Below are positions 3,524-59,654 of a stretch of 64,000 nucleotides of DNA, in pieces. The number at the start of each line of letters is the position of its first letter. Position 1 is the first letter of the stretch. Below the pieces are notes generated by a model that saw only the letters and a list, made by a program, of their open reading frames with translations, was not told where the DNA came from and searched no databases. The stretch lies in IMG/VR virus record IMGVR_UViG_3300045996_002278, one strand, 5' to 3'. A program made the translations under genes and the position numbers. The stretch comes from an uncultured virus (IMG/VR IMGVR_UViG_3300045996_002278). Its lineage: Duplodnaviria > Heunggongvirae > Uroviricota > Caudoviricetes.

Positions 3524-3661
3524 TTAACTCTTGTGTTTTTGAGCATCGTGCTCAGGTAGGTCGAAGTCCGGACCCGCGTTCACCGGGCGCTTACAGACGT
3601 AACACAGCTTCATGATCGCCTGGTTCGTCGTGCCGCAGCGGGGACACTTCCAGATGTTCAT
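3524..3661 (-). CDS. RanBP2-type zinc-finger microprotein (45 aa)
   Basis: Not in the ORF track. MNIWKCPRCGTTNQAIMKLCYVCKRP... fits W-x-C-x2-C-x3-N-x6-C-x2-C. ATGA overlap with the upstream gene. Confidence 0.75.
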   Translation of the reverse strand: MNIWKCPRCGTTNQAIMKLCYVCKRPVNAGPDFDLPEHDAQKHKS

Positions 3662-4089
3662 ATCTGTCCCTCGTACTGGGGTGCCGTGCCCATGTGAAAG
3701 AGAGATACACCTGCTTTACGAAGCAGTGCAAGAGGTTCAGTAAGACGGTACGCTTCTCGATACACCACCAGATAGATCCCAGCGTTAATGATCAACGCAG
3801 CACAAGACTCACACGGAGAGTGAGTCGCGTAGAGGATTCGTCCCTGTGGATATGGGGACTTGATAAGAGCATTAGCCTCCGCGTGGACGCAGCCGCAGTT
3901 GCCGGGTTCATCAGCCCGACATTTGTGGGGCATCCCGGCAGGGGGTCCGTTATAGCCGATCCCCAGGATTCGAGTGTGCTGCTCATCGGTTACGACCGCG
4001 CCCACCTGGAGGAGACGCTCACAGACCGATCGCTGGGAGACTACCGCCGCGATCTGCAACATCATTTCCTGTTTCGTAATGCGGGGCAC
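3658..4089 (-). CDS. dCMP deaminase family protein
   Basis: VGAVV, GYNG, HAEANAL and SPCESC zinc motifs. Confidence 0.9.
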   Translation of the reverse strand: MPRITKQEMMLQIAAVVSQRSVCERLLQVGAVVTDEQHTRILGIGYNGPPAGMPHKCRADEPGNCGCVHAEANALIKSPYPQGRILYATHSPCESCAALIINAGIYLVVYREAYRLTEPLALLRKAGVSLFHMGTAPQYEGQI

Positions 4090-4375
4090 GCGGTGTTCCT
4101 TTCTGGTAGTCGTTCAGACAGCCGACCAGGTACTCCACCAAGGCCGGATCGTCGTGGTAGCCAAGGGTTGTCGAGTACCCCGGTTGGCGAAAGCGGATCG
4201 CGTAGTGGTACCGTTGGTTCGGCTGGGTGTCGCTCTTCAGGTCACGCTCTGCAAACCACGGCGGCAGACCCCGCATAGCTGCTGGCTCCTGGTAGGGTTG
4301 TTCGTTTAATTCCTGCTGCCTCTTCTTCGACCGATTCACGCGAACCGTACGAGAGGGCGGTTCGAAGTACGACAT
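4019..4375 (-). CDS. hypothetical protein
   Basis: 118-aa ORF with TAATG coupling to the upstream ORF. Confidence 0.5.
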   Translation of the reverse strand: MSYFEPPSRTVRVNRSKKRQQELNEQPYQEPAAMRGLPPWFAERDLKSDTQPNQRYHYAIRFRQPGYSTTLGYHDDPALVEYLVGCLNDYQKGTPRAPHYETGNDVADRGGSLPAIGL

Positions 4376-4540
4376 TATCTGGGCCTGCTTCTCCGGTTTT
4401 CAAGGATCTCCACCACGACCATCTCGCCCTTCTTGATGACGTTCCCCTCAGGCCTTCCCTGGGGCAAGGTCCATTCGGCCAAGCACCGCTGTCCCTCGAT
4501 GGTACCATCGTGGACCAAGAGGCGTACTACCACGGCCAAC

Positions 4541-5461
4541 TTATCCTGGACCAGGGGGTGTGAGGCTATACGCATTACTCTCTTCCTTCCGGTATCGGCG
4601 CCCCATCCGGCCACGAAGGTTGGTCGGGCGTGACTTGAGGAGCTGGTACTTATGGAACTCGCAGAGTGTGTGTTCAATATCGGCCAGGCTGCAGTGGGGT
4701 TTCTCCTTCCAGGCGACATCGTTCCAGTCCAATCCCTGGTTATTCAGCACCTTGTCTCGGAGCTGCTGCAGGGTCCGAATGTCGGTTCCCATCTGCTCGA
4801 GCATCGAGCCTGACCCTCCCCCGGTGTTTCCTCCCTTCGCCTTGAACTTCCCCCCGTTGTTGTGGGTGTAGACCCACTCGTCGTCGGTCAGGTTCCCGAA
4901 CAGGTACGTCATGTCCAGGGCGACCTGATAGGCGGTGAACTTCCCCATCAGGGGAAAGCGCTGAATCATGATCCACGCCTGCTCGAGCCCCGTGGCACGC
5001 CACAGGTCCTGGGCTAGCAGGTAGGTGGGTGACCACGTGGACACCGCGGCCTCCACCCGCGCGAGGTAGTCCTTCCCCGGGTAGTTGCTCAGGGGTGGTA
5101 CCGTCCAGGCCCGGGTGGCGATCGTGTCGCCTCGCTGCTGCCGTGCCCGCATCTTCTTCATCCCCAGAAGGAACTGGGCGCCCCGGGCGGTTGGGCCGCC
5201 AAACGCCTCCTTCCAGGCGTCCACGTTGTTGAACACTCGGTACAGAAGAACGCTGAAGACGGTGTCCTCCAAGATACTACTCTTACGCATGATGTTCTTG
5301 ATCAGAAACTGCGTCCCTGGATCTAGCTCCCGATGCACGTTCACAAACCAGTAGCTGTGAAGGGTCGGGTCCTTCGTCCAGGGCCGTGGAATCTGAAGCA
5401 CCTCCCTTCGGTGCCAGATCGCTTGTCGTTCGTACGCAAACCGCCAGAACTCCTCGATCAT
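4541..5461 (-). CDS. aGPT-Pplase1 / HMUDK_hel-like DNA base-hypermodification protein (helical, HhH-glycosylase-like)
   Basis: FAYERQAIWHRR...PWTKDPTL..YWFVNVHRELD.GT; LYRVFN; G.FTAYQVALDM; DIEHTLCEFHKY. Confidence 0.8.
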   Translation of the reverse strand: MIEEFWRFAYERQAIWHRREVLQIPRPWTKDPTLHSYWFVNVHRELDPGTQFLIKNIMRKSSILEDTVFSVLLYRVFNNVDAWKEAFGGPTARGAQFLLGMKKMRARQQRGDTIATRAWTVPPLSNYPGKDYLARVEAAVSTWSPTYLLAQDLWRATGLEQAWIMIQRFPLMGKFTAYQVALDMTYLFGNLTDDEWVYTHNNGGKFKAKGGNTGGGSGSMLEQMGTDIRTLQQLRDKVLNNQGLDWNDVAWKEKPHCSLADIEHTLCEFHKYQLLKSRPTNLRGRMGRRYRKEESNAYSLTPPGPG

Positions 5462-5581
5462 TCGCCCTTCCAGCCGTAGGTTCCCTCGGCCAGCTTAAAG
5501 TAGAACAGCTCAGGGTACGCCAGCCAGTAGTTATCCATCGTCACCAGCTGGCCTACGAATTGGACCGTCACATTCCTCTGC

Positions 5582-7432
5582 TTAAGCGGCAGCCGCATAG
5601 TCGATCTCTCCCACGTGTCCCCAGTCTGGTCCCTTCTCGGCCTCGGCGATGATCGGGACCGTGAGCTGGTAGTCCTCCATCATCTCCTTCAGCCGCTTGG
5701 CTTCCCGTACACCATCCGGACCCTTGGGGATGGACAGGTCCAGTTCGTCATGCACGGTCAGGTGGAGCTGGGTGGTCACCCAGTCAATCTCGTTCCCCAC
5801 CCGGACCATCGCCTTCTTGATCAGGTCGGCCGCGGAGCCCTGGAGGAGTCCGTTGAGCGCCTTGTGACCACCGATGTACGCGGACTTATCCCGCTTGAGG
5901 TTCCACCCACGGGCCAGGGCCTCCTCCCGGGGCATGAACCGCCGCTTGCGGCCACCCCAGGTCAGGATGTACCCACGCTTCTTGGCCCGCCGCATGGCCT
6001 TGTCGTACAGGGGTTGAATCTCCGGCAACCGGGTGTGGTACGTCTTCAGCTTCTCCTTGGCCTCCTCCATCGAGCATCCCAGCTGTTCCGCGGTAGCAGC
6101 CACCCCCTGGCCATAGATCACGGCAAAGTTGAAGGTCTTCGCGTCAGGTCTCTGAAGACCCGTAAGCAGCGAGGCCATTCGGTGGAAATCCTGATCAGGG
6201 TTCTCGTTGTAGGCCTTACGTAGAATGCCACCTGCGTAATGCGCCAGGAAGCGATACTCGATTTGGGAGTAGTCAATCTTGAGCCAGTCCTGATTATCCG
6301 GGTCCATTGGTATGAATAGACCACGGATAAGAGGCGCCATTTCCTCGTCTCGCGCCGGGACATTCTGTAGATTGAGACCACCCCCGGAGGAGAAACGACC
6401 CGATACCGTACCATATCGCTCGTTTCGCATCTGATGGAACTCGCCATGGATCACCCCGTCCGGGTCAACGTTCTTCAGGATGTAGTTCTCGAGGAACGTG
6501 CCGGTGTAATGCCCCAGCTTGCGCCGGGCCAGCACGAGCTTCGCTACTGGGTGAGGCAGCCGCTTCAGCCAATCCGCCGGGAAGGAGGGGTTGCCCCCAG
6601 ATTCCTTCCCCTTCTTGTTGATGAAGGTGTCGGTCTTCGGATACGCGATCCCTAGCTTGTCGAACAACGCCGCCATCTGCTTCGGGCTGTCGACGTTCAC
6701 GTCATACCCGATCAGGCTGTACCACTGCTCCATTACCCGTTCTTCTTCCTGCTGAAACCCTTGCTGGGTCTGGTACGTCTTGGCCACGTCCACCCGGACG
6801 CCCAGCAGGTGCATCTTCAACAGGATTGGCAGGAGCTGGGTCTCAACCTGGTAGATGTCGTCCAGCTCCTCAGTGTTGATCTGTGGACGCCGTTTATCGT
6901 AAAAGACCAGGGTGCCCCAGGCGTCATCCGAGGCGTAGGGCGCCACGATGTGTCCCGGCGCCCGGTGGTAGTTCTCGGCCTGCGCATCTCGGGTGGGAGC
7001 GCCACCAAAGTGGAGGGCACAGTACTTGTTCAGCTCCTCATCGTTCTTGCCCATCCCGCAGTACTTCTGGAGCTGGAACTCCAGGGACATGGACTCGTCC
7101 AACTCGTTGAGGAGGGGCGCCAAGATGCTCCCGTCCTCGATGTTGTACCGGACCGGGATGCCCTCGTACGCCATCATCCGCATGTCGAAGGGGCCATTGA
7201 AGAAGATCTTTCTCAGCCCCCGGCGGGTCAGATTATCCTTCGCCCACGCCCGGACCTGCTCAACGGTGCAGTTGTTCCCGGTGGGATGACCCCAGGACAG
7301 GTACTTCTTCGTCCCGTCGGGCAAGGCCCACGACAGCCCCACAGGTCGGTTATGGTAACGGAGACCATTGGTCTCCGTATCCAGGCCTACCCGATCAGCT
7401 AAGAACAGGTTCGGGAACAGATCAGCGGACAT
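5582..7432 (-). CDS. polA: family A DNA polymerase with 3'-5' exonuclease
   Basis: Exo I GLDTET; TVSGRFSS; NLQNVP; motif A DYSQIEYR; motif B AKTFNFAVIYG; motif C VHDEL. Confidence 0.95.
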   Translation of the reverse strand: MSADLFPNLFLADRVGLDTETNGLRYHNRPVGLSWALPDGTKKYLSWGHPTGNNCTVEQVRAWAKDNLTRRGLRKIFFNGPFDMRMMAYEGIPVRYNIEDGSILAPLLNELDESMSLEFQLQKYCGMGKNDEELNKYCALHFGGAPTRDAQAENYHRAPGHIVAPYASDDAWGTLVFYDKRRPQINTEELDDIYQVETQLLPILLKMHLLGVRVDVAKTYQTQQGFQQEEERVMEQWYSLIGYDVNVDSPKQMAALFDKLGIAYPKTDTFINKKGKESGGNPSFPADWLKRLPHPVAKLVLARRKLGHYTGTFLENYILKNVDPDGVIHGEFHQMRNERYGTVSGRFSSGGGLNLQNVPARDEEMAPLIRGLFIPMDPDNQDWLKIDYSQIEYRFLAHYAGGILRKAYNENPDQDFHRMASLLTGLQRPDAKTFNFAVIYGQGVAATAEQLGCSMEEAKEKLKTYHTRLPEIQPLYDKAMRRAKKRGYILTWGGRKRRFMPREEALARGWNLKRDKSAYIGGHKALNGLLQGSAADLIKKAMVRVGNEIDWVTTQLHLTVHDELDLSIPKGPDGVREAKRLKEMMEDYQLTVPIIAEAEKGPDWGHVGEIDYAAAA

Positions 7433-7640
7433 CCCGATACCTGAGCAGGTCCGTCTTGAACTGCGTCCACGCCTTGTCGATCGTCTCGATCGCCTTCTCG
7501 ACGTCGGGATCGTTCGCCAGGTTGGACTTCCCCTGGAGAAGCTGGGAACCCTGCTCGACCAGCTGCAGCATCATGTTCATCCCACCTTCCAGCTGGGCGC
7601 GCTGGTAGTCCGCCTCAGTCACATGAGGCATCTTTGTCAT
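7422..7640 (-). CDS. hypothetical protein
   Basis: 72-aa ORF with AGGA RBS. Confidence 0.6.
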   Translation of the reverse strand: MTKMPHVTEADYQRAQLEGGMNMMLQLVEQGSQLLQGKSNLANDPDVEKAIETIDKAWTQFKTDLLRYRDVR

Positions 7641-7800
7641 CTTGCTCTTTCCTTTCCAGTTGCGTATACTCCCAGTGGAGCATCACCAGGCGGTTGAAGA
7701 TATTGCCCACCCGGTGGGTGCGTGGATCGTTCTGTCCGTGGTCCTTGATAAAGGACCGAACGAGGTCAACATCGGCCTCGGACAATTCCACGTGGATCAC
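7615..7800 (-). CDS. hypothetical protein
   Basis: 61-aa ORF with AAGGAGG upstream. Confidence 0.55.
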   Translation of the reverse strand: MIHVELSEADVDLVRSFIKDHGQNDPRTHRVGNIFNRLVMLHWEYTQLERKEQDDKDASCD

Positions 7801-7802
7801 GG

Positions 7803-8213
7803 TTACTCTTCCTCCTTACGACGGTCCATAAAGGGACCATGCTTCGTATAGATACCCAGATTATGCCGCCGCCGAATCAACTGCTGGCGGAGTTGAATAA
7901 GATCGAATGCGAACCGACTCAGGGTAGCCTCGATCTCCCGGGCCATCTTCACCCCATCCCGGACGAACTGGACCTCCCCGATCCGAACCTTGTACTGGGC
8001 GGTCTTCTTCTCCATCGCCTGCGCGTGCCGTACCCCTTCAATCAGGGTGTCAATCAGATAGTCGTGCACGTCGTGCTCCGGATGGCCAGCCGGTTCCAAC
8101 ACCTGTGGTCCCCATATCTTTACCTGCCGGGCACGATCAGCGTCCCGCCTCTTCTCGTACTCGAGAATGGGCGGGTTCTTCTCTTGAAGCCGGTCCTCCC
8201 TGCGACGGTTCAT
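7803..8213 (-). CDS. hypothetical protein
   Basis: Start re-called at MNRRREDRLQ, ATGA overlap with the TS homolog stop. Confidence 0.6.
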   Translation of the reverse strand: MNRRREDRLQEKNPPILEYEKRRDADRARQVKIWGPQVLEPAGHPEHDVHDYLIDTLIEGVRHAQAMEKKTAQYKVRIGEVQFVRDGVKMAREIEATLSRFAFDLIQLRQQLIRRRHNLGIYTKHGPFMDRRKEEE

Positions 8214-9133
8214 TCGCTCCGCTGGCGTTCGTGATACAGCCCCCGGTACAAGGCGGGCAAGTCCTCCACCCGCTTGTGGAAGCGGAACGCCAGCACCTTC
8301 AGGTAGTCCAACCATACGTTGTAGTCGTGCTCCTTGTCACGTTCCCACGTATAGATAATGTCCTGCATGATTGCGGGGTCCTGGGAGGTGATGCCCAGGA
8401 AGAAGGTCTCCATCCAGGGTGGCATGGATGACAGGGGAGGCGAGGCGAAGCCCTCCGGGATCAGCCAGATGGGGTTGCATAGCTCCGCAACCGCCTGGGC
8501 CTTCTCGTAATGCTCCTCGTACAGGTGAAGGCTACCCACGTTGTGGGTGTAGCTGCCCAGACCCACGGCCAGCATCACCGCAAGGTACCGCTGGATCTGG
8601 GTGAAGGTGAACACGTCGTACGGGAATCCCAGCCACAGGTCGTTAGACCTCATCGTCACGACACAGTGGAGCAGGTCATGACGGATTAAAAACTGCATCG
8701 ACAGGGTACACGGGATGTCCCTGGTGCCCGCCGGTCTCTCCCGCCAGAGGTTGATCACGGCCTGGCGGCTGTCGCGGTCGTTCTGCAAGGTCCGAACCAC
8801 GTACTGGAGCTGCTCGACAACCTTGGGGCCATACGCCCCAAAGAAATGCATCCCATCGTCCGAGAACTGCCTGATGTTGCCATTGTACGGGGCGATGGTA
8901 CGCACGTCGTTCCGGCCGAACATGATCCATAGCCACTCCGCGACCTGGAACTGATAGTTGAGGTTCCGTTCCCGCAGGGTCACCACGTTGTACGCCGGGT
9001 TCTGGAGGACCAGGGTAGACCCGATCGTCTCCACCGTCTTCTTCCCTCGAGGGGAGACCCCGTGGCCCTCCCGGCACAGGCCATAGATCGCCCGACAGTA
9101 CAGGTCGTTAACTGTTGACGCGACGATTCGCAC
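8210..9133 (-). CDS. thymidylate-synthase-family enzyme, Asp-type (dCMP hydroxymethylase/methylase-like)
   Basis: GAYG, DSRQAVI, catalytic DIPC, MRSNDLWLGFPYD, GSLHLY. Asp replaces the dUMP-specifying Asn. Confidence 0.85.
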   Translation of the reverse strand: MRIVASTVNDLYCRAIYGLCREGHGVSPRGKKTVETIGSTLVLQNPAYNVVTLRERNLNYQFQVAEWLWIMFGRNDVRTIAPYNGNIRQFSDDGMHFFGAYGPKVVEQLQYVVRTLQNDRDSRQAVINLWRERPAGTRDIPCTLSMQFLIRHDLLHCVVTMRSNDLWLGFPYDVFTFTQIQRYLAVMLAVGLGSYTHNVGSLHLYEEHYEKAQAVAELCNPIWLIPEGFASPPLSSMPPWMETFFLGITSQDPAIMQDIIYTWERDKEHDYNVWLDYLKVLAFRFHKRVEDLPALYRGLYHERQRSE

Positions 9134-9437
9134 CGACTAACTCCTCTCCAAGCGCGAACATCTGGGCGCGCTGTCCCAGGTGCCGGGCCACTAACTCCAG
9201 GATTTTGAGTGACATCTCGAGAACCCGACGCCGCTGCTCGGTCCGGTGCCGGCGCTGATCCATCACCCGGAAATCCTGCTCGATCTCCCGACACAGCAGT
9301 TCCATGAGATGGACACTGTCCTGAGATCGGTGTTCCGCCAAAAGTACGAGGGCGTCCTGTTCTCCGTTCTCAAGAATGCGGTCCTCTAGCTGCATGCGCA
9401 GCTTGTCCGCACGTACCAACACCGATGCGACTGGCAT
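9108..9437 (-). CDS. hypothetical helical protein
   Basis: Start re-called at MPVASVLV after AGGAG. Confidence 0.55.
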   Translation of the reverse strand: MPVASVLVRADKLRMQLEDRILENGEQDALVLLAEHRSQDSVHLMELLCREIEQDFRVMDQRRHRTEQRRRVLEMSLKILELVARHLGQRAQMFALGEELVGANRRVNS

Positions 9438-9439
9438 AC

Positions 9440-10360
9440 CTACTCCTGCATGAAGGGTGCCTTCGTTGGCCCCTGAAGGGCCTGGGCCAGGGGGTATTCC
9501 TCCCCGGTCCGGAACCGGCGCCAATACGCCGGGTGCTCGAGGGCCGCGTAGGGAACTCGGGCCACCTTCTCGCACCACTCCGCCGCCACCTTGCCCAAGG
9601 CCACTACGTGGGCCGGGTCCAACAGGTCCATGAAGCCCGGGTGACACTCCGCGTCGGTCAGGTAGTCCCGGGCATTGATCCAGTACAGGGAGCGTTCGGG
9701 ATAGCCGACTCGCTCCAGCTCGTTGGTCAGCCACCAGCTCCCACCCTGCTCGAACTGCACGAATGGAAGCTTCGGCCCCTTGAGGTTGTCGTTGATCCGT
9801 TCCCCGACCATCAGGGTGACACCGCGGCGGAACGCGCCAATCCCTGGTCCCTCGTTCGGTGGCGGCCGGCGTACCTCGATCCGCTCCCGAACCTTTACCG
9901 CCTTCGATCCGACCGTGTAGTCCCAGTAGAGCTTGGGCAGGTCGGTCTGGAAGTGCCGGTAGCCGTCGTAGACCTGACGGTACCAGTCCTGATCCACCAC
10001 GTACTCACCACCCGCCAGGTTCCGCCGCGCCCAGTTCTCCTCTGCGATCTCATACCGAGCCAGGCAGATAAGAAGGACCGTGGACCGGGACAGGAGGTAA
10101 CGGTCCATCATCCGCTGGCGCGCCCGGTCGAACCAGGTTGGCCGTTGAAACAGGGGACCGTAGATCATCTCCGACGGGTAGAGCCGATCAAGCACCGCAT
10201 TCTCCGGCGTCTTTTGCAGACCTTCGAAGAACTTGAAGAACATGTTCTCCTGCGGGAAGTCCGGTGGACCCCACTTCACGTAGTGCAGATCCTGGAACGC
10301 CGGGGTCTGGCACAAGGTGGTCTTCCCACAGCCATCGGGTCCTTCAACCAGCGTAAGCAT
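9440..10360 (-). CDS. dNMP-kinase-like P-loop domain fused to a uracil-DNA-glycosylase-superfamily domain
   Basis: N-terminal VEGPDGCGKTT and LDR..PSE.IYG; C-terminal LMVGE, PF, WINA, VVALGKVA, HPAYWRRF. Confidence 0.8.
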   Translation of the reverse strand: MLTLVEGPDGCGKTTLCQTPAFQDLHYVKWGPPDFPQENMFFKFFEGLQKTPENAVLDRLYPSEMIYGPLFQRPTWFDRARQRMMDRYLLSRSTVLLICLARYEIAEENWARRNLAGGEYVVDQDWYRQVYDGYRHFQTDLPKLYWDYTVGSKAVKVRERIEVRRPPPNEGPGIGAFRRGVTLMVGERINDNLKGPKLPFVQFEQGGSWWLTNELERVGYPERSLYWINARDYLTDAECHPGFMDLLDPAHVVALGKVAAEWCEKVARVPYAALEHPAYWRRFRTGEEYPLAQALQGPTKAPFMQE

Positions 10361-10503
10361 GGTACTCCTTCTCCGTGGAAGGACTCGGTAATGCGACCAG
10401 CAATGCATGGAAACAGTCATTGAATCGACTGCCCTCGAGAATCATCATCCGGCCTTCAGGATCTACCGAACGGGGCCGAAAGCCGGTGTTCCGCTTCAGG
10501 TAC

Positions 10504-11247
10504 TCAGCGATCGCCGCCCGGGATGTTGGCGCCTGGATGCACGCCATCTTCCGGGGATACCCCTGGATCTCCAGCCACAGGTCCCACTTCTGTGGGGGTG
10601 TGACAGACCGCCACCTTGTGACCCTCGAACGAAGCCCGCTGAGCAGCAAATAGAATCCGGTGTAGGTCAGGAGGTTGCCAACCAGCCGGCTTAACCACGT
10701 CGAGCTTGTTCTTACGGATGGATTCCTCGTGCGACTGGACCCGAATCTTAGCCATGTTGGCATTCTGCACCTCATCCCATCCCAGTTGCCAGGGGAGTCC
10801 CATCATTGCCGCCGTACCGTGTGCGAAGTACACGAGGTCAATCAGGCTATCGAACACACCGGCCATATCACCGTTTCGTGCGTGGTCCACCATCTCGCGA
10901 AGCTCTTCCACCATCATCTGGATACGACCATAGAACTGATCATCCTGGTAGAAGGCACGCAGACCAAGGAGTTCGTCCTCAGCTCCCTTCAACAGGCTCC
11001 AGGCCGATAGTGCCTGGACCGCCTCGTGGGCGCCGGGCAGCAGCCGAGGAAACTCGGCGACCGGCAACCCGAACTTCTTCTGGAACGCCACCACGTCGTC
11101 AAAGTTAGACGGGGCGTGGGGCAGGTCATCCCCATTCCCGTACAACACGAACGCCGGCTCATGAATGACTTCGCCGGTCGCGTCCTCGACGGTCAGGTGT
11201 GGACGTGTCTCTTCCACCGGGTCTCTCCTTATGCTTGAGGTGTCCAA
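10504..11247 (-). CDS. MazG-like / PRA-PH all-alpha NTP pyrophosphohydrolase
   Basis: DVVAFQKKF, EELREM, DSLIDLVYFAHG, WDEVQNANMAK, KPAGWQPPD. Confidence 0.85.
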   Translation of the reverse strand: MDTSSIRRDPVEETRPHLTVEDATGEVIHEPAFVLYGNGDDLPHAPSNFDDVVAFQKKFGLPVAEFPRLLPGAHEAVQALSAWSLLKGAEDELLGLRAFYQDDQFYGRIQMMVEELREMVDHARNGDMAGVFDSLIDLVYFAHGTAAMMGLPWQLGWDEVQNANMAKIRVQSHEESIRKNKLDVVKPAGWQPPDLHRILFAAQRASFEGHKVAVCHTPTEVGPVAGDPGVSPEDGVHPGANIPGGDR

Positions 11248-11371
11248 GGCCGTGTCGCTCGATCATGTAAAACACCGTCCTGAGAGACAGCCCCAGCACC
11301 CGGGCCATCTCTCGCCGGCTATGGGTCTGCAGAATCACCTGGGACAGCAGCAGCTTTTCCACCTCCCACAT
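11159..11371 (-). CDS. Fis-like helix-turn-helix protein
   Basis: EKLLLSQVILQTHSRREMARVLGLSLRTVFYMIERHGL. Confidence 0.6.
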   Translation of the reverse strand: MWEVEKLLLSQVILQTHSRREMARVLGLSLRTVFYMIERHGLGHLKHKERPGGRDTSTPDRRGRDRRSHS

Positions 11372-11397
11372 GATCTCTCGGTAGCCGCCAAAGGCGG

Positions 11398-12366
11398 TCA
11401 GTCCGGCCGGCAGATCCATATGTTGTTGCGGCTGTGATCCGGGTACAACGGCGCGAGGAAGGTCGACATCACCTCGTTCCCGTAGTACGCCTGCAAAGCG
11501 GTGAATGTTGACAAATGCTCCGGCGTCAACTGCTTCTTGAGAACGTTGACGGAGGCGAAGGTTCCGAAACGCCGTTCGACGGCCCATCCGTTGCCCTCCA
11601 GGGTTGACTGCAACTCAGGGATCGTGTACTCGTGAATGTGGTTCCGGGCACGGAACCCATCGAACACCGGGGTAGACAGCATCAGGACCCCGGACGGCTG
11701 CCCCAACGCCCTGTTCGGCGCCATGTTGATCAGGGCACGCATCGCCTGAAGAAGCCGGATACCGTCTGCCACGCTCATGTGCTCGATCACCTCGAAGCAG
11801 GTAATCAGCTCGAACGGGTAGCCCTCATCCTTCATCAGCTCCTCGTACCGCGAGGTGAGGTCGAACTCCTCATACAGCCCCACCATCGCCCGGCGGTTCT
11901 TGGTCTTGATCCGGTTCATGTCCACGCCAACGTAACGACCGGGGTAGTTGGCGTTGATGCCACCGATTAGCGCCTTGTAGAGCGGAATCTCAGGACCGCA
12001 GCCCACATCAAGAACAGAAGTAACGTCCCTGTTAATGACGTGGCGCGTCGCAAAACCCCAACGAAAGAAGTGCGAAGCGTAATCGCGGTGGACGATCTCT
12101 CCATGGAAATCCTCCGTGAGGTAGGTCTGGTCGAACCGCCGCGGCTCCCGGTCTTCCTTCCGCTTAGATCGGGCCTTCTGTTCCGGGGGAAGCACCTGGA
12201 GGTTATGGCCGGCCGACACCACAAGCTCTGGCGCGGTAATCTGGCCGATCTCCTCAGCCGCTTTCTCCGGGCTCTTCTTCTTTTTCTTCTTCGACTTCTT
12301 TACGGGAGGGTTTTCCTCCAGACCCTCCGCGTACGTATCGGTGTGGTACTCGGCAGCTTCACCCAT
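11398..12366 (-). CDS. class I SAM-dependent methyltransferase
   Basis: VLDVGCG, YVGVD, ITCFEVIEHM, LMLSTP, HIHEYT; Lys-rich N-terminal extension. Confidence 0.85.
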   Translation of the reverse strand: MGEAAEYHTDTYAEGLEENPPVKKSKKKKKKSPEKAAEEIGQITAPELVVSAGHNLQVLPPEQKARSKRKEDREPRRFDQTYLTEDFHGEIVHRDYASHFFRWGFATRHVINRDVTSVLDVGCGPEIPLYKALIGGINANYPGRYVGVDMNRIKTKNRRAMVGLYEEFDLTSRYEELMKDEGYPFELITCFEVIEHMSVADGIRLLQAMRALINMAPNRALGQPSGVLMLSTPVFDGFRARNHIHEYTIPELQSTLEGNGWAVERRFGTFASVNVLKKQLTPEHLSTFTALQAYYGNEVMSTFLAPLYPDHSRNNIWICRPD

Positions 12367-13457
12367 TATGCGGTCTTCCTCCCGTAGACGCCCCCGAGAA
12401 GATTCACGACGTAGAGCCGGGGCTCGGGCTCAGGAACGTTCGCGTCCAGGGCGGCCCTTACCTGCGAGGCGAGCCACTTCCCGACAGGCGGTAACACAGC
12501 CCTGGCGATCTGGGCATAGCAGACAGTAACCTTCCCCTGGAACTCGTAATCGTACGGATAGCCACAGAGAAGCTGCTGTTCCTTGATCGACAGGTGGCGG
12601 ATCTCGGTCGGGTGGTATAGGTGCTGCCCTCCCGTCACGGTTGGACTGTGCTTGTCGAAGTGGACCCGGGCGTGAAGGAATCCGGGGCGGGTGAACCGAT
12701 ACCCCTGGACCGACAGCTTGACATTCTTCGCGTACTCGGACTCCTCCCACATCTCCATCAGCTTTCCACCACCCCGGGGCGCGGGGTTCTGCTCCAGGAG
12801 AGAGGCGATGACCTTGCTGATGTTTCCATGCGGGCCGATTGGCTTACCCTCCATGGGCTTCCAAGCATCTGAAACCGTCATGTAGGGCTCGTCGGGCGGG
12901 GTGATCGGCAGCGCCACCCGGTGGGCCAGGAAAAAGAACCGCTTCCGCGGCTGGGCAAGTCCGCACTTCTGACCGTTGAGAATCAGGTGGGTGACCGAGT
13001 ACCCGTTCGCCAGACAGAAGGCCGTCTTGTCGTCGACGAACTGCTTGCCGGCCGTGTAGGCACGAGCCACCGACTCCCAGGTGAACGCCTTCGGCTGCAG
13101 CTCGAGCAACAGCTCGAACAGCCGGTCCGTGCACTTGGTCCGTTCATCCGACAGGTACCGGCCCTTGTTGTGGTCTACCGTCGCGTCCTTGCCCAGGGTC
13201 GGCTTGTGGCCGGCCGTAGACCAGGGGGCGCACGGCGGGTTGCCATACAGCCAGTCCACCGAGCCAGCGGTCTGCTGGATCGGCCAGTTCTCCTGCCCCA
13301 CGAACACGGGGAGGTCCGGCATGTTGTGGCGTACGGTGGGAACCCCGAACGGGCCTTCCTCGAAATGCGCGAGCACCTGGAAATGCTCTCGCACTCCCAG
13401 GGTGAACCCTCCGGCGAAGATATATGCGCCGAGGGCGGTGGGTTGACTCTCCGTCAT
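12366..13457 (-). CDS. DNA cytosine-C5 methyltransferase homolog with atypical cofactor motifs
   Basis: Motif IV GNPPC and motif VIII QPRKR intact; motif I YIFAGG, motif VI ESV and motif X QIARAV diverged. Confidence 0.85.
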   Translation of the reverse strand: MTESQPTALGAYIFAGGFTLGVREHFQVLAHFEEGPFGVPTVRHNMPDLPVFVGQENWPIQQTAGSVDWLYGNPPCAPWSTAGHKPTLGKDATVDHNKGRYLSDERTKCTDRLFELLLELQPKAFTWESVARAYTAGKQFVDDKTAFCLANGYSVTHLILNGQKCGLAQPRKRFFFLAHRVALPITPPDEPYMTVSDAWKPMEGKPIGPHGNISKVIASLLEQNPAPRGGGKLMEMWEESEYAKNVKLSVQGYRFTRPGFLHARVHFDKHSPTVTGGQHLYHPTEIRHLSIKEQQLLCGYPYDYEFQGKVTVCYAQIARAVLPPVGKWLASQVRAALDANVPEPEPRLYVVNLLGGVYGRKTA

Positions 13458-17551: not shown

Positions 17552-17875
17552 TCACGCCGTAGGCTGAAGTAACTCCCCAGGCGGAGGGTCAGTTTCAATG
17601 GTGGTTCGGGTCGTTGTTCCATCTGGCCGCCTGATTGACATGGTGAATCGTGGATGGATCTGTGCCCAGATACGTACCGAGATCGGCCGCCAGGAATCTT
17701 CTCCCTGCCACGTATGGAACGCGACCGATCCCTCAATCCCAATGTGATGAACCCGCCACTGCTTGATCAGCTTGTTCTCCTCATCCTTGTAGGAGACAAT
17801 GATCGCCGGGTCATCCTTGCAGTTTACCTCATTCCGGTCAAGGATAGACCGGCCAATGCTGACGTAGTACGGCAT
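17552..17875 (-). CDS. hypothetical protein
   Basis: Start re-called at MPYYVSIGR, TGATG coupling to thyX. Confidence 0.55.
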   Translation of the reverse strand: MPYYVSIGRSILDRNEVNCKDDPAIIVSYKDEENKLIKQWRVHHIGIEGSVAFHTWQGEDSWRPISVRIWAQIHPRFTMSIRRPDGTTTRTTIETDPPPGELLQPTA

Positions 17876-18600
17876 CAGAACTCTTCCGGGGGATTCCCCG
17901 TCTGACTCTCTTCCCATGCGGATACCGCGACCGGTACGATGGGGTGGATCAGATCCAGCATGGCAAAGGCGTACTGTTGAATCTCGTACTGGGCGTGGGG
18001 GTCAACCCTAAGCCCCAAGAAATGAAACAGGTTCCGCAGGTTCAGGGTCGTGAACATGTGGGTGTAGGTGTTCACGGGCAGCACCATCCGGGCCAGCTCC
18101 CGGGGCCAACCGGTGCTTAGCAGCTGACGGTACAACCCGAACGCCGCCTCGCAATGGGTATTGATGTACTCCAGTTCCTTAGCCCTTTGCTCGGCCCACT
18201 CCCCCGGACTCTGGGTATTTCTTCCCTGCTTGTTAGTCGCGGACTGCATGCCCACGACCATGGGTGAGGGCAGGTAGAACTCCTCTGACAGGGCACGGTA
18301 GCGACCAGACAGCTCGTTGTACGACTGGGTCCGGTGCCGATGCCACTGGCGCACGACGAAGATCGGTGCCTTCACCTCAAACGTAAAGGTCACCGCCTCG
18401 AACGGGGTAAAGTGCTGGTGCTTGTACAGGTAGTGGATCAGCTTCTCATCCGCGTGCTCGTCCTCCCCTGCCCGCCAGGCCGCGGCGTACGATACCCGCG
18501 CGGCCCGGACGATGCTGAGGTCACTACCCATGTGGTCCACGAGACGGACATACCCATGGTCCAACACGGGCTTAAACGGGTCAGAACTCGGGCTGGTCAT
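17875..18600 (-). CDS. thyX: flavin-dependent thymidylate synthase
   Basis: RAARVSY, HFTPFE, RQWHRHRTQSYNELSGRY, ELARMVLP, HAQYEI. Confidence 0.95.
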   Translation of the reverse strand: MTSPSSDPFKPVLDHGYVRLVDHMGSDLSIVRAARVSYAAAWRAGEDEHADEKLIHYLYKHQHFTPFEAVTFTFEVKAPIFVVRQWHRHRTQSYNELSGRYRALSEEFYLPSPMVVGMQSATNKQGRNTQSPGEWAEQRAKELEYINTHCEAAFGLYRQLLSTGWPRELARMVLPVNTYTHMFTTLNLRNLFHFLGLRVDPHAQYEIQQYAFAMLDLIHPIVPVAVSAWEESQTGNPPEEF

Positions 18601-28656: not shown

Positions 28657-29736
28657 TTAAGCAATCGCGAGCCCATAGACTGTGACCCTGCCAACCGTAA
28701 AGGTTCCAGCCGAAGGGAATATCTTCAGCCCCGTGATAGCATCGGTCTGCTCGAGTGACGCGCCGCCACCGTGCATCACCATGTCACCCGCGGCGGAGGT
28801 AATGGCCGTGCCCTCAACGGTTGCCAGCTTCCAGATGCTGCCGCTTGCGAGGCAGGAAAGTTCAAGCCGACTGGCGAAAGATTTCCAGGCATCGTTCCCC
28901 GTCAGATAGGAAGAGGTACCACCGTGGATGATCGGGATGGAGGTACCGGAGGCCGGGGTATTCTGGGCCGGCTGACTGGTGCCACCATCATCACCGTAAG
29001 CATTGTGGCGCCAGCGATAACCCGTGGTCCGAAGCACGCTGTTGGTGTAGAGCTGGGCGAAGGTCGAGACGGCATTATCCGACACCTGAATCCCGTCCAT
29101 CAGCACAATGACCCGGCGGTAGGGGCTGAAGTCTAAGCTGGAGAAGTCGAAGATACCACCTACCGGCGCGGCCATGTGTTGGAGAACAACCCACACCGGG
29201 TCAGTGTCGGCCGATGACTTCACCCCATAGAGGGTCGCAGAACCTCCCGCCCAGCCGGTGGATGCCGCGATCCGGATACGATCAATCGCGCCGGTCTGGT
29301 CGAGGCTGCCACCCTGGTAGGAGTTGACGAGGGCTCCGCTGGGAGAGTTCCAACAGCCATAGCCATGGTGTAGCTTGTTACGGCCAGCCCCAGGATTACG
29401 GATGATCAGGTGCATCATCCCGCACTCACCCGCCGCGTTTCCCTGGCCCCAGGTGGTCGTGGTGTCGACGCCGATGATCCGGGCGGAGGGATCGCTCGAG
29501 TCCTCGCCATCATTGTTGGCGCCGCTGGAGCTTTCTCCTCGAGTACCGTACCGATAGAGGGCGGTGTGAAGCGAGCCACCGATCCCATACTCCAGGGTGC
29601 CGCGCACGCCATCCGCTCCCGCGATAAGACCATCGAGGTGCAGGTGCAACCGGCGATAGGACCCCAGGGATAGCCCGGTGAAGTCCCATGCTCCACTGGT
29701 CGGGGTGTTGATGTGTTGAATCAGCTCGTAGCTCAC
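28657..29736 (-). CDS. virion/tail-associated protein with two tandem beta-rich repeats
   Basis: Two ~175-aa paralogous domains, each starting xDF..L....YRR and ending G..T(L/V)YG. Confidence 0.7.
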   Translation of the reverse strand: MSYELIQHINTPTSGAWDFTGLSLGSYRRLHLHLDGLIAGADGVRGTLEYGIGGSLHTALYRYGTRGESSSGANNDGEDSSDPSARIIGVDTTTTWGQGNAAGECGMMHLIIRNPGAGRNKLHHGYGCWNSPSGALVNSYQGGSLDQTGAIDRIRIAASTGWAGGSATLYGVKSSADTDPVWVVLQHMAAPVGGIFDFSSLDFSPYRRVIVLMDGIQVSDNAVSTFAQLYTNSVLRTTGYRWRHNAYGDDGGTSQPAQNTPASGTSIPIIHGGTSSYLTGNDAWKSFASRLELSCLASGSIWKLATVEGTAITSAAGDMVMHGGGASLEQTDAITGLKIFPSAGTFTVGRVTVYGLAIA

Positions 29737-30932
29737 AGGTTCACCACCTTCTGATAGGTTACCAGGGTTACGCCGGTGTGACGCTTGCCGGTCCAGTCCA
29801 CGGTCAACTGGCTGGCGCCGGTCTTGGAGATGTCGATCACCCCGTACTGGTTGTTGTTGGTGTAGCGACCCGCGCCCTGGTCGTAGGTGGCGCCACCGTG
29901 GGTCTCCGCGCCCGTGCGATCCAGGGGAGCTACCTGGAAGGTAGGGATCGGATCTCCGCCACCCGTGCTGAAGTCGTGGTTGGCGCCGGAGTCGATGGCC
30001 AGGCTGTGCATGTCCGCCGAGACGACGAGGACCCGTCCGGGCGCCTCAGCCTTGAAGTGGTCGGCCAGCTCCGTCCTTTCGGTCGTGAAGCCACCCCAGT
30101 GGTCGGCGCTAGCCGTCGCGACACCACCCCAGGTACGAGAGCACACCCAGATGAAAAGCTTGTCATCGTTCGCGGCGTCGGAGAACAGACCCTTGAACCA
30201 AGTCTTCTGGGCGGTACCCAGTATGGTCTTGGAGCTGTTATCCGTAGCAGTTCTATTGCTTGCCATACTCCGCTGATCGGTCACGATGAAGATGACCCCA
30301 AGGCCACCCACCGAGACCTCGTACGCGAAGTACGGCGCGTCGGTATCACCACTCTCGACCAAGGTGGGGCTAGGTACCACCTTACGATAGGCGCGGCAGG
30401 CACCTGCCCTGGTACCGCTGGTCGAGAAGGAGTCGTTGGGACCGAAGTCGTGGTCGTCCCAGCAGTAGAGGTTTGACATCTCACGACGGAGTTGTCCCTG
30501 CTTCGGCAGCGCCATGATCCTATCGTACGGGGCGATGTGGCTGCTGATGGTTGCTTCAACCGGCTCCTCGTAGTGCTGATCACCCATGTGGATAAAGAAC
30601 TTGGCGTTCTCTCCCCGGATGGCATCGAACACCGCGTGGTCGCTGTCCGTATCCGCGTCGCCGCTGAGACAGACCTTCAGGGTGTTGGCCGAGGCGTCAA
30701 GCATTCGGGCCTGACCAACCTGACCCGCGGCGGTTTGGAGCACACCGTCAATTTCCACCGCCAGGTAGTACAGGCTGCCGGCGGTCAGGCCGGTGATCGA
30801 GGGCTTGGCCCTGTGATTCACCGTGTTGACCGCCGAGCCGTAGGTAGGGCTGGACATATCCGAGGATAGGGACGCGGCCAGCCGCACCTCCGCGTCCATG
30901 GTCAGGTTGACCGCTACGGTAACGCCAGCCAT
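29733..30932 (-). CDS. phoD: PhoD-family alkaline phosphatase/phosphodiesterase
   Basis: HMGDQHY, WDDHDF, DQRS, ILG.AQK.WF, DHWGGF..ER, SADMH; no signal peptide. Confidence 0.85.
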   Translation of the reverse strand: MAGVTVAVNLTMDAEVRLAASLSSDMSSPTYGSAVNTVNHRAKPSITGLTAGSLYYLAVEIDGVLQTAAGQVGQARMLDASANTLKVCLSGDADTDSDHAVFDAIRGENAKFFIHMGDQHYEEPVEATISSHIAPYDRIMALPKQGQLRREMSNLYCWDDHDFGPNDSFSTSGTRAGACRAYRKVVPSPTLVESGDTDAPYFAYEVSVGGLGVIFIVTDQRSMASNRTATDNSSKTILGTAQKTWFKGLFSDAANDDKLFIWVCSRTWGGVATASADHWGGFTTERTELADHFKAEAPGRVLVVSADMHSLAIDSGANHDFSTGGGDPIPTFQVAPLDRTGAETHGGATYDQGAGRYTNNNQYGVIDISKTGASQLTVDWTGKRHTGVTLVTYQKVVNL

Positions 30933-57269: not shown

Positions 57270-58056
57270 CTTCGCCTCCCTCGTTAAGAATGATTTCGTC
57301 CAGCTGCCCGGTCAGTTGCTCCTGCGTCCGGCTGGGCAGCTCGGGCCGGTTGGCCAGGTGCCGGATGCGACGGGTTAGGGCCGACAGGATGTGGGGGTCG
57401 TGAACCTCCTCCACGATCGCCTGTTGGATCAGCCCCATGAAGGTGATCATCTGCTTGCTGTTGATGTACGTCTGGAGGGCTTCCTCGCGCCGGCGCTCCG
57501 TGTCCGCCAGTTTGCGGCGCAGCTCGATCCATTCCTGGATCTCGGCCCAGTGCTGGTGGTCGGTCTTCTTCAGCTCTAGGGCAGATTCGAGCAGGGCAGT
57601 GCTGAGAAGAATATCCCCTAGCTTATTATCATCTACCGCTTTTCTGAGCTTGCGGATACCGTCAACGATCAGCTGCCAGGCGTGGGGAATCTCACCCGAC
57701 TCCAGTCGCTCAAGGAGTTCACCCACCCGGGCGTCGGTGAGCCGCATCTCGGCGTTAAGGGAGAGGAGGTCGTGATCTCCCGCGAAAGTGTCCAGCATCT
57801 CCACCAGGCGGGCTGGTATCTTCCGAGCGTAGCCGCGGCCGTAGAAGTGCTCGGGGCCAAAGTCGAACCTCCGGTCTACTGGTGTGGCGCCCCCGTGATG
57901 CTTGCAACGATCCCGGCCGGTGACCGGGTAGTTGTGGCAATAAAGATCTTCTCCGGTAGTACCACGCCCCTGAAGAACGGCGTTGCACCTGCCCGCGGCA
58001 GGCTTACGCTTGTCCATCCGGTTCTCGTGGTTGGGAGCTGGGACGTTGGTCGGCAT
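57091..58056 (-). CDS. putative terminase small subunit (HGGx-type Zn/DNA-binding N-terminus)
   Basis: C...C......RCKHHGGATP followed by a helical domain; first gene of the late operon. Confidence 0.65.
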   Translation of the reverse strand: MPTNVPAPNHENRMDKRKPAAGRCNAVLQGRGTTGEDLYCHNYPVTGRDRCKHHGGATPVDRRFDFGPEHFYGRGYARKIPARLVEMLDTFAGDHDLLSLNAEMRLTDARVGELLERLESGEIPHAWQLIVDGIRKLRKAVDDNKLGDILLSTALLESALELKKTDHQHWAEIQEWIELRRKLADTERRREEALQTYINSKQMITFMGLIQQAIVEEVHDPHILSALTRRIRHLANRPELPSRTQEQLTGQLDEIILNEGGEDGGEGSGLDQSGPGEPDAADAGGPPEPGGDGFLYPEPGPAGQVGGGSDQAEVPGERGAD

Positions 58057-58201
58057 GGGTAAGACTCTATGAACTGGTGGAGCTCGGATGACACCCCCTA
58101 GTTCAGGGTTTAGAGATCTTACTACACACTAGAGGAGGAAAGCTACAGAAATTTCTAGAAAAATTTTGGAGGGTGCCCCCTGGACCTGGGGCTGTATCCC
58201 G

Positions 58202-58366
58202 TTATACGAGAACGCAATGCCTATTTGAGAAGCTTCCCCTACCAGGGTTTCGAAGGCAATCCCGAAGGGTATAGGTACGTCAGTGCACCTGCCTCCTAAT
58301 ATCCGTACCCTGGATATGAATGTTCTAAGTACAAAGCTTTTTCTAAAACTTTAGTTTCCCGTATAG
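58202..58366. repeat. cis element, copy 2
   Basis: TTATACGAGAA, CAATCCCGAAGGGTA, AATATCCGTACCCTGGATAT and TTTCCCGTATAG in the same order as at 24987-25136. Confidence 0.65.
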
Positions 58367-58399
58367 GATACGCGTGCCGATACAGTGGGGCGTCAACGT

Positions 58400-58800
58400 T
58401 TCATTATGAAAAATACCCCTCCCATACCTTATAAATATTCATCCATAATGTATAATTATAAATTGAAATGTATAAATGAACCTAAGTCCTTTAAAATCAA
58501 TAAGTTATAAATGATCCTGGAATGGCATTATGCATAATGTGAATAAAAAGTAAACGAAATGTATATTTATGAATAGGATTAATGGGTTATGAAAACAGCC
58601 TATCTTAATACAAAAAAGTTACTGGCATATACATATTGAATTTCTTATATTCATTTCAAGTTAAATGATTAATAAAAATTAGTTAGTCAATAGTAATTAA
58701 AATTGTTACAAAACAAAGTATTGACAAAAAGATAATAAACGATTAAATTATTCCTAAGTTAAATGAAAGGAAAATACAAATAAGAATAAAAAGTTTGAGA
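58400..58800. other. very AT-rich non-coding island with an IHF consensus site
   Basis: Abrupt composition shift; AATCAATAAGTTA at 58495-58507 fits WATCAANNNNTTR. Confidence 0.7.
58703..58749 (+). promoter_or_regulatory. strong early sigma70-like promoter
   Basis: TTGACA-17 nt-TAAATT, AT-rich upstream region, TTGTTACAA palindrome. Confidence 0.75.
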
Positions 58801-58867
58801 AATACCGGCCGGGCGGCTCCCGGATCAACCTGGGCACCTGGTGTGCCCCCAGAACGGAGAATGACAT

Positions 58868-59119
58868 ATGGCGAAGCGTGGATACCAGTTCATGGTCGAC
58901 AGCGCCGACCTGCAGGCGGGCGTGCGCAAGGTCCCCCTGGACTACAAGCCGGAGCAGACCCAACAGCTGTACGCAACGTACTCGGTCGCGCGCCTTAACC
59001 TGTTCGCGGAGCACCGCAAGGTTATCGTGGCCCACCAGCAGATGATCCAGGATTGGGTGACGATCAAGCTGGAGGACGTGCCGACCCTCGAGCTGGCCGA
59101 GGAGCAGGAGACCGCGTAA
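58868..59119 (+). CDS. early hypothetical protein
   Basis: 83 aa; AGAACGGAGAA RBS. Confidence 0.7.
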   Translation: MAKRGYQFMVDSADLQAGVRKVPLDYKPEQTQQLYATYSVARLNLFAEHRKVIVAHQQMIQDWVTIKLEDVPTLELAEEQETA

Positions 59120-59248
59120 GCGGGGCGGGGGACCGGGCAACCGGTCCCCCAGCTTTCCTCCGCGCTGTAGGGCGCGTACGGCCCGGTGCAACTCCGGGGC
59201 GGAGGGCTGGTAGTGCAGCATGGGTTCCATCCCCAACTGGAGGTCCAG

Positions 59249-59404
59249 ATGTACCAGGTTTTCTACGGCCAGCACTGGCTCCGCTCCCGGAGCAAGACGT
59301 TCCCCACGAAGGCACTGGCCCTCAAGTTCGCCCGCCAGCGCAAGACCCCGTACGTCCGCGTGATCCGAATCCAGCGCGACGTCGTGTGGTCCCGGGGGAG
59401 CTGA
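59249..59404 (+). CDS. early basic microprotein
   Basis: GGAGGT RBS; MYQVFYGQHW..., 51 aa. Confidence 0.65.
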   Translation: MYQVFYGQHWLRSRSKTFPTKALALKFARQRKTPYVRVIRIQRDVVWSRGS

Positions 59405-59507
59405 CCCCCCAGCAGAATCCCCTGGTTCCCGGCGCACTGGAGGTTCGATTCCTCCGCCAGGGCTGCAGGCCCCGCAGTAGAACGGAGAACTTTAACTGGA
59501 GGTACAG

Positions 59508-59654
59508 ATGAGACCCCTGCTTGCCGCGGTATGCGTGCTCGTGATGGTGGGTGCAGCGATGGCCCAGATCACGAAGGCGCTGCCCCTCGAGTTCGCCGCC
59601 GTGCTCTCGGTGACGGCGTTCCTGGTGCTGATTACCAAGTGCGGGGAGGCGTAA
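59508..59654 (+). CDS. early two-TM membrane microprotein
   Basis: GGAGGT RBS; MRPLLAAVCVLVMVGAAMA...FAAVLSVTAFLVLI, 48 aa. Confidence 0.6.
   Translation: MRPLLAAVCVLVMVGAAMAQITKALPLEFAAVLSVTAFLVLITKCGEA

Follow-up and report, generated by a model that had tools for sequence, protein, structure and literature searches.

What base does a phage make when its thymidylate synthase (TS) homolog carries a residue expected of a dCMP-using enzyme, and what is a protein of the aGPT-Pplase1 family (hereafter Pplase1) doing in the same replication module? Both questions are raised by a 64,000-nucleotide stretch of DNA from an uncultured virus of the Caudoviricetes (IMG/VR record IMGVR_UViG_3300045996_002278), the whole of which is referred to below as the window. 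An earlier examination, which we call the sequence-only reading, had singled out a pyrimidine hypermodification cluster at 3658..11247 and described its parts as mismatched. All of the genes it listed are present, although one of them, encoding a DUF6378 protein, falls outside that range. We suggest, with a probability of roughly 0.6, that the cluster is a T4-style pre-replicative route that replaces deoxycytidine with 5-hydroxymethyl-deoxycytidine in the phage DNA. We are more confident that some 5-substituted deoxycytidine is made than that the substituent is a hydroxymethyl group; the domain identities, the specificity residues and the strong genomic linkage of the parts are observed, and it is from these that we infer the substrates and the product. 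The core pathway is already known in principle and is widespread, and replacement of cytosine by 5-hydroxymethylcytosine (5hmC) is a known anti-restriction strategy.

The TS homolog is where the argument starts. Its Asp173 (codon 8617-8615; the translation of 8606-8629 reads GFPYDVFT) aligns with the specificity Asn of Bacillus subtilis ThyA, with an Asp of MilA, and with the Asn of PaMx11 gp51, which is a dUMP hydroxymethylase. The sequence-only reading had taken this residue as a sign that dCMP rather than dUMP is the substrate, and both the residue and its meaning are borne out: a 2026 study (PMC13326640) reports that N177D, in Escherichia coli numbering, makes dCMP the substrate. According to the same study, L143D or L143E, where the acidic residue gives water access, leads to a hydroxymethyl rather than a methyl product and is a feature of both T4 gp42 and MilA, and D169N marks the newly found 5-hydroxy-dCMP synthases, all tested examples of which have Asn there. 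In the window the L143 position is Asp139, which aligns with Leu in B. subtilis ThyA and with Asp in MilA; the D169 position is Asp165, in an RSND motif, so that Asp is kept; and the catalytic Cys (E. coli C146) is Cys142, in an IPCT motif. These four residues are all invariant in our alignment A1, and across the query and its 120 best homologs Asp173, Cys142 and Asp165 never vary (121 of 121).

The protein does not score as a canonical ThyA, since all NCBIfam ThyA equivalog models rate it far too low (66 bits, for example, where 174-327 would be required), and Asp165 in place of Asn separates it from the 5-hydroxy-dCMP synthases of the RB69 gp48 type. Its best match among solved relatives is the CMP hydroxymethylase MilA (3e-32, residues 26-233), as compared with 5e-18 for ThyA. 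With Asp173, Asp139 and Asp165 present together, the enzyme is therefore predicted to be a synthase of 5-hydroxymethyl-dCMP (5hm-dCMP). That compound is most likely its product; the residues argue against dTMP, 5-methyl-dCMP and 5-hydroxy-dCMP.

The surrounding genes could supply what such an enzyme needs. In the scheme we propose, the MazG-like enzyme would cut dCTP (and dUTP) to the monophosphate, the TS homolog would convert dCMP to 5hm-dCMP, the kinase domain of a kinase-UDG (uracil-DNA glycosylase) fusion would form the diphosphate, and the host nucleoside-diphosphate kinase together with the phage PolA would complete incorporation; meanwhile, dUMP from the dCMP deaminase would pass through ThyX to ordinary dTMP, and the fused UDG-fold domain would keep uracil out of the DNA. 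The MazG-like protein, with PDB matches to 3nl9 and DR2231, is probably a dCTPase/dUTPase. The deaminase has intact zinc and catalytic motifs (CVHAE and PCESC), and the separate ThyX pointed out earlier is indeed encoded. Since the MazG-like protein, the Asp-type TS, the kinase, the deaminase and ThyX reproduce the logic of T4 with non-orthologous parts, this set is coherent, and the description of the cluster as mismatched applies to Pplase1 alone.

Genomic linkage points the same way. We ran three scans of 80 loci each, covering viral loci with an Asp-type TS, viral loci seeded with Pplase1, and metagenome loci seeded with Pplase1, several contigs being common to the two Pplase1-seeded sets. 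Among the Asp-TS loci, tblastn detects MazG in 35 and dCMP deaminase in 50. There is experimental precedent for these associations in MetaGPA, which reports that the TS proteins of cytosine-modified phage contigs mostly have Asp177, and that PF01503 and dCMP deaminase domains accompany the TS domain, in many cases on modified contigs exclusively (PMC8670742). Two phages, Stenotrophomonas phage AXL3 and PW916, encode a methyltransferase, MazG, the kinase-UDG fusion, an Asp-type TS and dCMP deaminase in the window's order, and AXL3 also has ThyX. The published account of AXL3 describes its DNA as resisting 35 of 37 restriction enzymes and as cut by TasI and Tru1I only, the sites of which consist of A and T only (AATT and TTAA) (PMC7504290).

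The kinase-UDG fusion is the part that follows the Asp-type TS most closely. Its kinase family occurs in 68 of the 80 Asp-TS viral loci, in 25 of these as a UDG fusion, and 57 of 69 kinase matches end no more than 400 nt from the TS start; in the Pplase1-seeded loci, which are mostly Asn-type, the family appears in 2 of 160. This distribution fits a dedicated kinase for modified dCMP, comparable to the dNMP kinase gp1 of T4. The AlphaFold model of the fusion, built from a 44-sequence alignment (A2), has a pLDDT of 93.4. Foldseek matches its N-terminal domain to YorR, to deoxynucleoside kinases (dNK) and to thymidylate kinases (TMPK) at 1e-6 to 1e-3, and its C-terminal domain to the family 4 UDGs 1ui1 and 1vk2 at 5e-5 to 1.5e-4. 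A2 shows no variation in the kinase motifs, a GPDGxGKT P-loop and the DR motif D58-R59. Three UDG-type motifs are conserved as well, of which we read VGE as motif A (GE..), WINA as holding the uracil-contacting Asn, and HPxYWxRF as motif B (HP..). PF03167 is precomputed for 4 of 45 homologs. Family 4 UDGs typically have four Cys ligands of a 4Fe-4S cluster; reading the C-terminal half of A2 by eye, we saw no conserved four-Cys pattern. Because it retains the GE, Asn and HP motifs, the domain may be an active glycosylase for uracil (or 5-hydroxymethyluracil, 5hmU), which by its fusion to the kinase may be coupled to modified-dCTP synthesis. The database form of the protein is 306 amino acids long, giving a probable start at 10360. 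Elsewhere (AXL3 gp29, PW916) the fusion is annotated merely as 'thymidylate kinase'.

We also considered whether this fusion could be the missing 5-hydroxymethyl-deoxyuridine (5-hmdU) DNA kinase, and rejected the idea, the dNMP-kinase family being almost exclusive to Asp-TS loci. The protein has no match to PF18748, the family of that kinase, even at E up to 5, and BLAST against PaMx11 gp49 aligns only the P-loop (E 0.21). The two are distinct kinases, because loci L067 and L069 have both of them, side by side.

What remains to be placed is Pplase1. The protein matches PF18723, the former aGPT-Pplase clade 1 (as which its homologs are annotated in phage records), with 156.4 bits against a cut-off of 25 and over profile positions 4-272 of 281. 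The family is named 'HMUDK_hel' because SP10 gp186 fuses it to a 5-hmdU DNA kinase, as listed in Table 3 of PMC5889632. Pplase1 is 25% identical to PaMx11 gp50, a member of the clade, and shows no BLAST similarity to PaMx11 gp46, a transferase (E 1.5). Its model has a pLDDT of 88.8 and aligns under VIA-align with PUGT, the same gp46 transferase (8z2n_B; Z 11.6, 216 residues, root-mean-square deviation 3.8), and next with the helix-hairpin-helix (HhH) glycosylases AlkA, OGG1 and MutY (Z 4.4-7.6), although the Foldseek E-value for the fold match is just 0.16. By its model, Pplase1 is an HhH-glycosylase-like paralog of the amino-acid:DNA transferase (AADT), with a two-helical-bundle fold; its sequence indicates that it is not itself an AADT. 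Its gene is intact, with all family-invariant residues kept, and its closest homologs (P0168-P0176) are 31-50% identical. Pfam finds no match to PF18724, PF18748 or a glycosyltransferase among 79 window open reading frames (ORFs), in agreement with the sequence-only reading, which had recognised neither a 5-hmdU DNA kinase nor a glycosyltransferase in the window.

Elsewhere, Pplase1 usually keeps company with an Asn-type dUMP hydroxymethylase, often together with the 5-hmdU DNA kinase (5-HMUDK) and AADT; the only TS in the window is Asp-type. A survey of gene neighbourhoods, proposed earlier as a check, shows that Pplase1 lies mostly beside an Asn-type TS, and that it lies beside an Asp-type TS in six contigs besides the window (L013, L081, L082/L111, L099, L105 and L133). 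In a Pplase1 tree these six fall into at least four separate lineages, and the window stands alone on a long branch. Some Asn-type neighbours (MRSNDLFWGFPYN...) reach 200-215 bits on the Asp-clade profile, and the switch between Asp and Asn therefore occurs between close relatives. Neither HMUDK nor AADT was found by local iterated profiles in 45 of the 80 viral Pplase1 loci, and RP13-type phages likewise have Pplase1 without either (PMC13697223). Pplase1 thus follows the hydroxymethylase more closely than it follows the kinase/transferase pair, and it is not strictly tied to uracil. The supplement of PMC8670742 places aGPT-Pplase1 on 4 cytosine-selected and 34 unselected contigs (raw p 6.7e-4, corrected p 1), and aGPT-Pplase2 on 0 and 10, respectively.

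A DNA glycosyltransferase adjoins Pplase1 in 4 of the 6 Asp-type contigs, namely a TET-associated glycosyltransferase (TAGT) in L081, L082 and L133 and a T4-type alpha-glucosyltransferase in L105. Of 9 Asn-type loci sampled among those without kinase and transferase, 4 likewise have TAGT next to Pplase1; the Pfam check of these neighbours took in 104 of 126 ORFs, with three loci left out. Pplase1 may, then, belong to glycosylation pathways of 5-hydroxymethyl-pyrimidines. The adjoining families are PF20691 (TAGT) or PF11440 (the T4-type enzyme) in L118, L140, L100, L154, L081, L082, L133 and L105, uracil-type and cytosine-type contexts alike, and no TET gene was noticed there. In L081 the Pplase1 gene (10992-12338) has an HNH endonuclease-like insertion, PF18723 being split into two stretches on either side of a weak PF13392 match, an arrangement that points to a homing endonuclease or an intein-like element.

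The scans had a by-product. Four viral loci (L059, L067, L069 and L073) combine an Asp-type TS with a PF18748 kinase and a PF18724 transferase, as confirmed by Pfam, and in a fifth (L060) PF18746/PF18724 follows directly after the Asp-type TS. Each of the five whole records contains a single PF00303 gene, and that of L069, which is CheckV-complete (92,321 bp), lacks both ThyX and a PF00383 deaminase. By their gene content these loci are candidates for a pathway that would do for cytosine what the hypermodification route does for thymidine, and no report of such a pathway turned up in the papers searched. On the evidence of L069, a protein of the wider Pplase superfamily can lie downstream of a dCMP-type enzyme in a phage that encodes no such deaminase.

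How might Pplase1 act in the window itself? We speculate that it would flip bases after replication on 5-hydroxymethyl-pyrimidine DNA, whether the pyrimidine is U or C and here 5hmC, and that it would either play an accessory part or carry out a group transfer for which no kinase is required. The window offers it a single candidate partner, the UbiG-like S-adenosylmethionine (SAM) methyltransferase, which could act on the modified base or nucleotide; strong homologs of this protein lie upstream of MazG or TS in AXL3, PW916 and 11 Asp-TS loci, and weak homologs lie immediately upstream of Pplase1-TS(Asn) in 7 loci. A role on 5hmC DNA, one of the two possibilities raised by the sequence-only reading, is plausible and draws indirect support from the six other contigs with an Asp-type TS and Pplase1, four of them with an adjoining DNA glycosyltransferase; it is the weakest part of our explanation. 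The broader proposal, that the aGPT-Pplase superfamily extends beyond thymine, that an orphan Pplase1 flips 5hmC in a kinase-free cytosine hypermodification, possibly with the UbiG-like methyltransferase, and that L059, L067, L069 and L073 run the cytosine counterpart of the thymidine route, is tentative and, taken as a whole, somewhat improbable. We found no report of an AADT or a Pplase acting on cytosine in the papers searched; Iyer et al. 2013, in which the Pplase families were reportedly defined, may already treat hmC contexts.

Several observations weigh against the interpretation we favour. The residue rules derive from a limited set of tested enzymes, and the finding that the specificity residue is Asp in 80 of 80 loci retrieved from IMG/VR with the family profile is biased, PYD being contained in one of the three scan seed patterns. 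The C5 DNA methyltransferase-like gene of the window is unexplained in a genome predicted to be without unmodified cytosine; its product has the PPC catalytic motif, with ESV replacing ENV, and homologs occur near 28 of the 80 Asp-TS loci, just upstream of MazG. Pplase1 lies within 10 kb in 3 of the 80 Asp-TS viral loci. Approached from the Pplase1 side, the TS neighbour in the viral scan is Asn-type in 63 loci, Asp-type in 4, truncated in 1 and missing from the range examined in 12 (n = 80), and in the metagenome scan it is Asn-type in 31, Asp-type in 0, absent in 47 and fragmentary in 2 (n = 80). M6 gp55, which by PaMx11 synteny and a 2018 table is the probable clade 1 ortholog of Pplase1, is dispensable in lysates for the first step, glycine transfer (PMC8989533). 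Lastly, of the Pplase1 residues conserved across the family, none changes with the Asp or Asn context, a result in keeping with an enzyme to which the 4-position of the base makes no difference and equally with one that has no role on the base. The best differential position, K174 in the HhH hairpin, is Lys in 6 of 7 Asp-context sequences and in 4% of 85 Asn-context ones; as a specificity determinant it was set aside, because it rests on 7 non-independent sequences.

Of the competing explanations, the one that survives best concerns Pplase1 and leaves the cluster as a plain 5hmC pathway: the protein would have no part in modifying the phage's own bases, being instead a glycosylase-like enzyme that works in repair or on host DNA, or a relic of a thymine-modifying ancestor. 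No activity of clade 1 has been demonstrated in any phage, and the gene is located between those for PolA and the deaminase, away from the MazG-kinase-TS block; the many viral loci, and the RP13-type phages, in which kinase and transferase are both missing also fit a separate function. We nevertheless consider this unlikely. An intact gene with its invariant residues under apparent purifying selection, and with a clade of homologs at the identities given above, is not a decaying relic, and the pairing with an Asp-type TS arose separately in the several Pplase1 lineages of the tree, often beside a DNA glycosyltransferase. The SP10 fusion (PMC5889632, Table 3) likewise connects the family with base modification.

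A second explanation, raised by the sequence-only reading, is an indirect route to 5hmU, in which the deaminase would turn 5hm-dCMP into 5hm-dUMP, 5hmU would partly replace thymine, and Pplase1 would act on 5hmU DNA as in phages of the M6/ViI type. It draws on the preference of Pplase1 for Asn-type neighbours (94 typed loci against 4 of Asp type in the two Pplase1-seeded scans), on the intact deaminase, and on a replication backbone like that of the thymine-modifying M6/PaMx11-type phages. Yet the deaminase accompanies the Asp-type TS in 50 of 80 loci and Pplase1 occurs in only 1 of those 50, ThyX provides the deaminase with an ordinary job, and the DNA of AXL3, a phage that shares the deaminase, TS, kinase and MazG, is cleaved at AATT and TTAA and protected at all sites containing G/C (PMC7504290). 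Moreover, L082 has an Asp-type TS, Pplase1 and TAGT and no deaminase within reach, and the complete record L069 pairs its Asp-type TS, PF18748 and PF18724 with no PF00383 deaminase. We regard the 5hmU route as quite improbable. Least probable of all is that the TS homolog resembles that of Xanthomonas phage XP12 in making 5-methyl-dCMP, or that of RB69 in making 5-hydroxy-dCMP, leaving Pplase1 with no hydroxymethyl handle and no modification role: Asp at N177 alone would also fit a dCMP methylase (mutant data cited in PMC8670742), TS homologs with unexpected chemistry are reported in PMC13326640, and the window has no recognised glycosyltransferase to use the hydroxyl, but the clade-invariant Asp139 is the hydroxymethyl signature common to T4 gp42 and MilA, Asp165 is kept throughout the homologs where the tested 5-hydroxy-dCMP synthases have Asn, and the closest solved relative is a hydroxymethylase.

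The window has a GC content of about 60%. Siphophage-type structural genes (tape measure, tail, portal, terminase) occupy 28-58 kb, and a co-directional, minus-strand block for replication and nucleotide metabolism, to which the genes in the table below belong, occupies 2.7-25 kb. The region has no close relative among 50,697 phage records searched by megablast; the best matches in IMG/VR and JGI metagenomes are 52% identical for the TS homolog and 36% for Pplase1. The longest contig with the window protein P0122 measures 74,527 bp, so that about 10 kb of contig may fall beyond the window. Many of the ORFs scanned with Pfam are without a family, among them three that lie between the enzymes (7803-8315, 9108-9440 and 4019-4375) and resemble short helical proteins. 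A scan for promoters and terminators gave counts no higher than chance. Among the tail genes lies one for a PhoD-like phosphatase or phosphodiesterase (29733-30932, minus strand; PF09423 at 5e-16), and GC dips to 0.53 at 58000-60000, against about 0.62 in the flanks, in a stretch with small ORFs that have no family.

Genes of the nucleotide-modification module and its surroundings, with window coordinates
Feature	Coordinates	Strand	Support
DUF6378 protein, 111 aa	2764..3099	-	PF19905 at 5.4e-16; matched PHROG families labelled 'phosphofructokinase'
dCMP deaminase, short form, 143 aa	3658..4089	-	PF00383 at 5.6e-17; phrog_174 at 1e-44
Standalone aGPT-Pplase1	4541..5461	-	PF18723 ('HMUDK_hel') at 1.3e-45
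Family A DNA polymerase (PolA) with 3'-5' exonuclease	5582..7432	-	PF00476 at 3.8e-66; PF01612 at 4.4e-9
TS homolog, predicted dCMP hydroxymethylase	8210..9133	-	PF00303 at 1e-22; Cys142, Asp139, Asp165, Asp173
dNMP kinase fused to UDG-fold domain (putative), ORF 326 aa	9440..10420	-	AlphaFold model and Foldseek
MazG/HisE-like all-alpha NTP pyrophosphohydrolase	10504..11247	-	PF01503 at 2.6e-9; phrog_671; start codon uncertain
Class I SAM methyltransferase (Methyltransf_23, UbiG-like)	11398..12366	-	Homologs recur beside the module
Divergent C5-cytosine DNA methyltransferase-like protein	12366..13457	-	PF00145 at 1.4e-23
ThyX flavin-dependent thymidylate synthase	17875..18600	-	PF02511 at 3.1e-56; phrog_85 at 3e-66

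Whether a phage withstands restriction enzymes, CRISPR and glycosylase-based defences depends on its modified bases, and the pathways that make them are a source of enzymes for DNA labelling. The window places Pplase1 beside a dCMP-type hydroxymethylase and, together with the related loci, allows a choice between 5hmU, 5hmC or both as its substrate to be tested. The kinase-UDG fusion, found in 25 of the 80 Asp-TS loci, is a second part for which our literature searches, none of them aimed at it, turned up no published description. In a larger context, the pathway is found in a high-GC siphophage lineage related to thymine-modifying phages, and modules therefore appear to have been swapped on a common replication backbone.

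The comparison with known systems begins with AXL3 and PW916, to which the window proteins are 39% (SAM methyltransferase), 40-48% (MazG), 27-30% (kinase-UDG), 40-45% (TS) and 32% (deaminase) identical. No Pplase1 match was found in the stretches of these two phages that we examined; the window adds Pplase1 and the C5-methyltransferase-like gene. In T4, gp56 is the dCTPase/dUTPase, gp42 the dCMP hydroxymethylase and gp1 the dNMP kinase, and cd and td provide the deaminase and thymidylate synthase. The window shares with T4 the removal of dCTP, a TS-fold dCMP hydroxymethylase (predicted here), a dNMP kinase, a dCMP deaminase and a separate thymidylate synthase. It differs from T4 in that its pyrophosphatase is MazG/HisE-like and not dUTPase-like, its kinase is YorR/TMPK-like and joined to a UDG-fold domain, its dTMP would come from ThyX, and no glucosyltransferase is recognised. 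T4 gp42 is not among the 60 PDB matches listed for the window TS, although both proteins have Asp at the N177 and L143 positions, as given for gp42 in PMC13326640. MilA (PDB 5b6d, 5jnh) also has Asp at both; its substrate is a ribonucleotide and its setting is antibiotic biosynthesis.

A UDG fold joined to an enzyme of replication or nucleotide metabolism has a parallel in the PolA-UDG fusions of thymine-modified phages (PMC13697223), in which the partner is the polymerase and not, as in the window, a nucleotide kinase; one PolA-UDG was observed in our loci (L096). The clusters of M6, PaMx11 and ViI resemble the window in that a single replication module brings together Pplase1, PolA, a hydroxymethylase of the TS fold and dCMP deaminase, on a backbone that also includes Pam3 gp32-34-like proteins, an AEP (archaeo-eukaryotic) primase and UvrD. 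Those phages encode 5-HMUDK, AADT (which is aGPT-Pplase2) and a dUMP hydroxymethylase, whereas the window has an Asp-type TS and neither PF18748 nor PF18724, and it adds MazG and the dNMP kinase-UDG fusion, the latter a rarity among Pplase1 loci.

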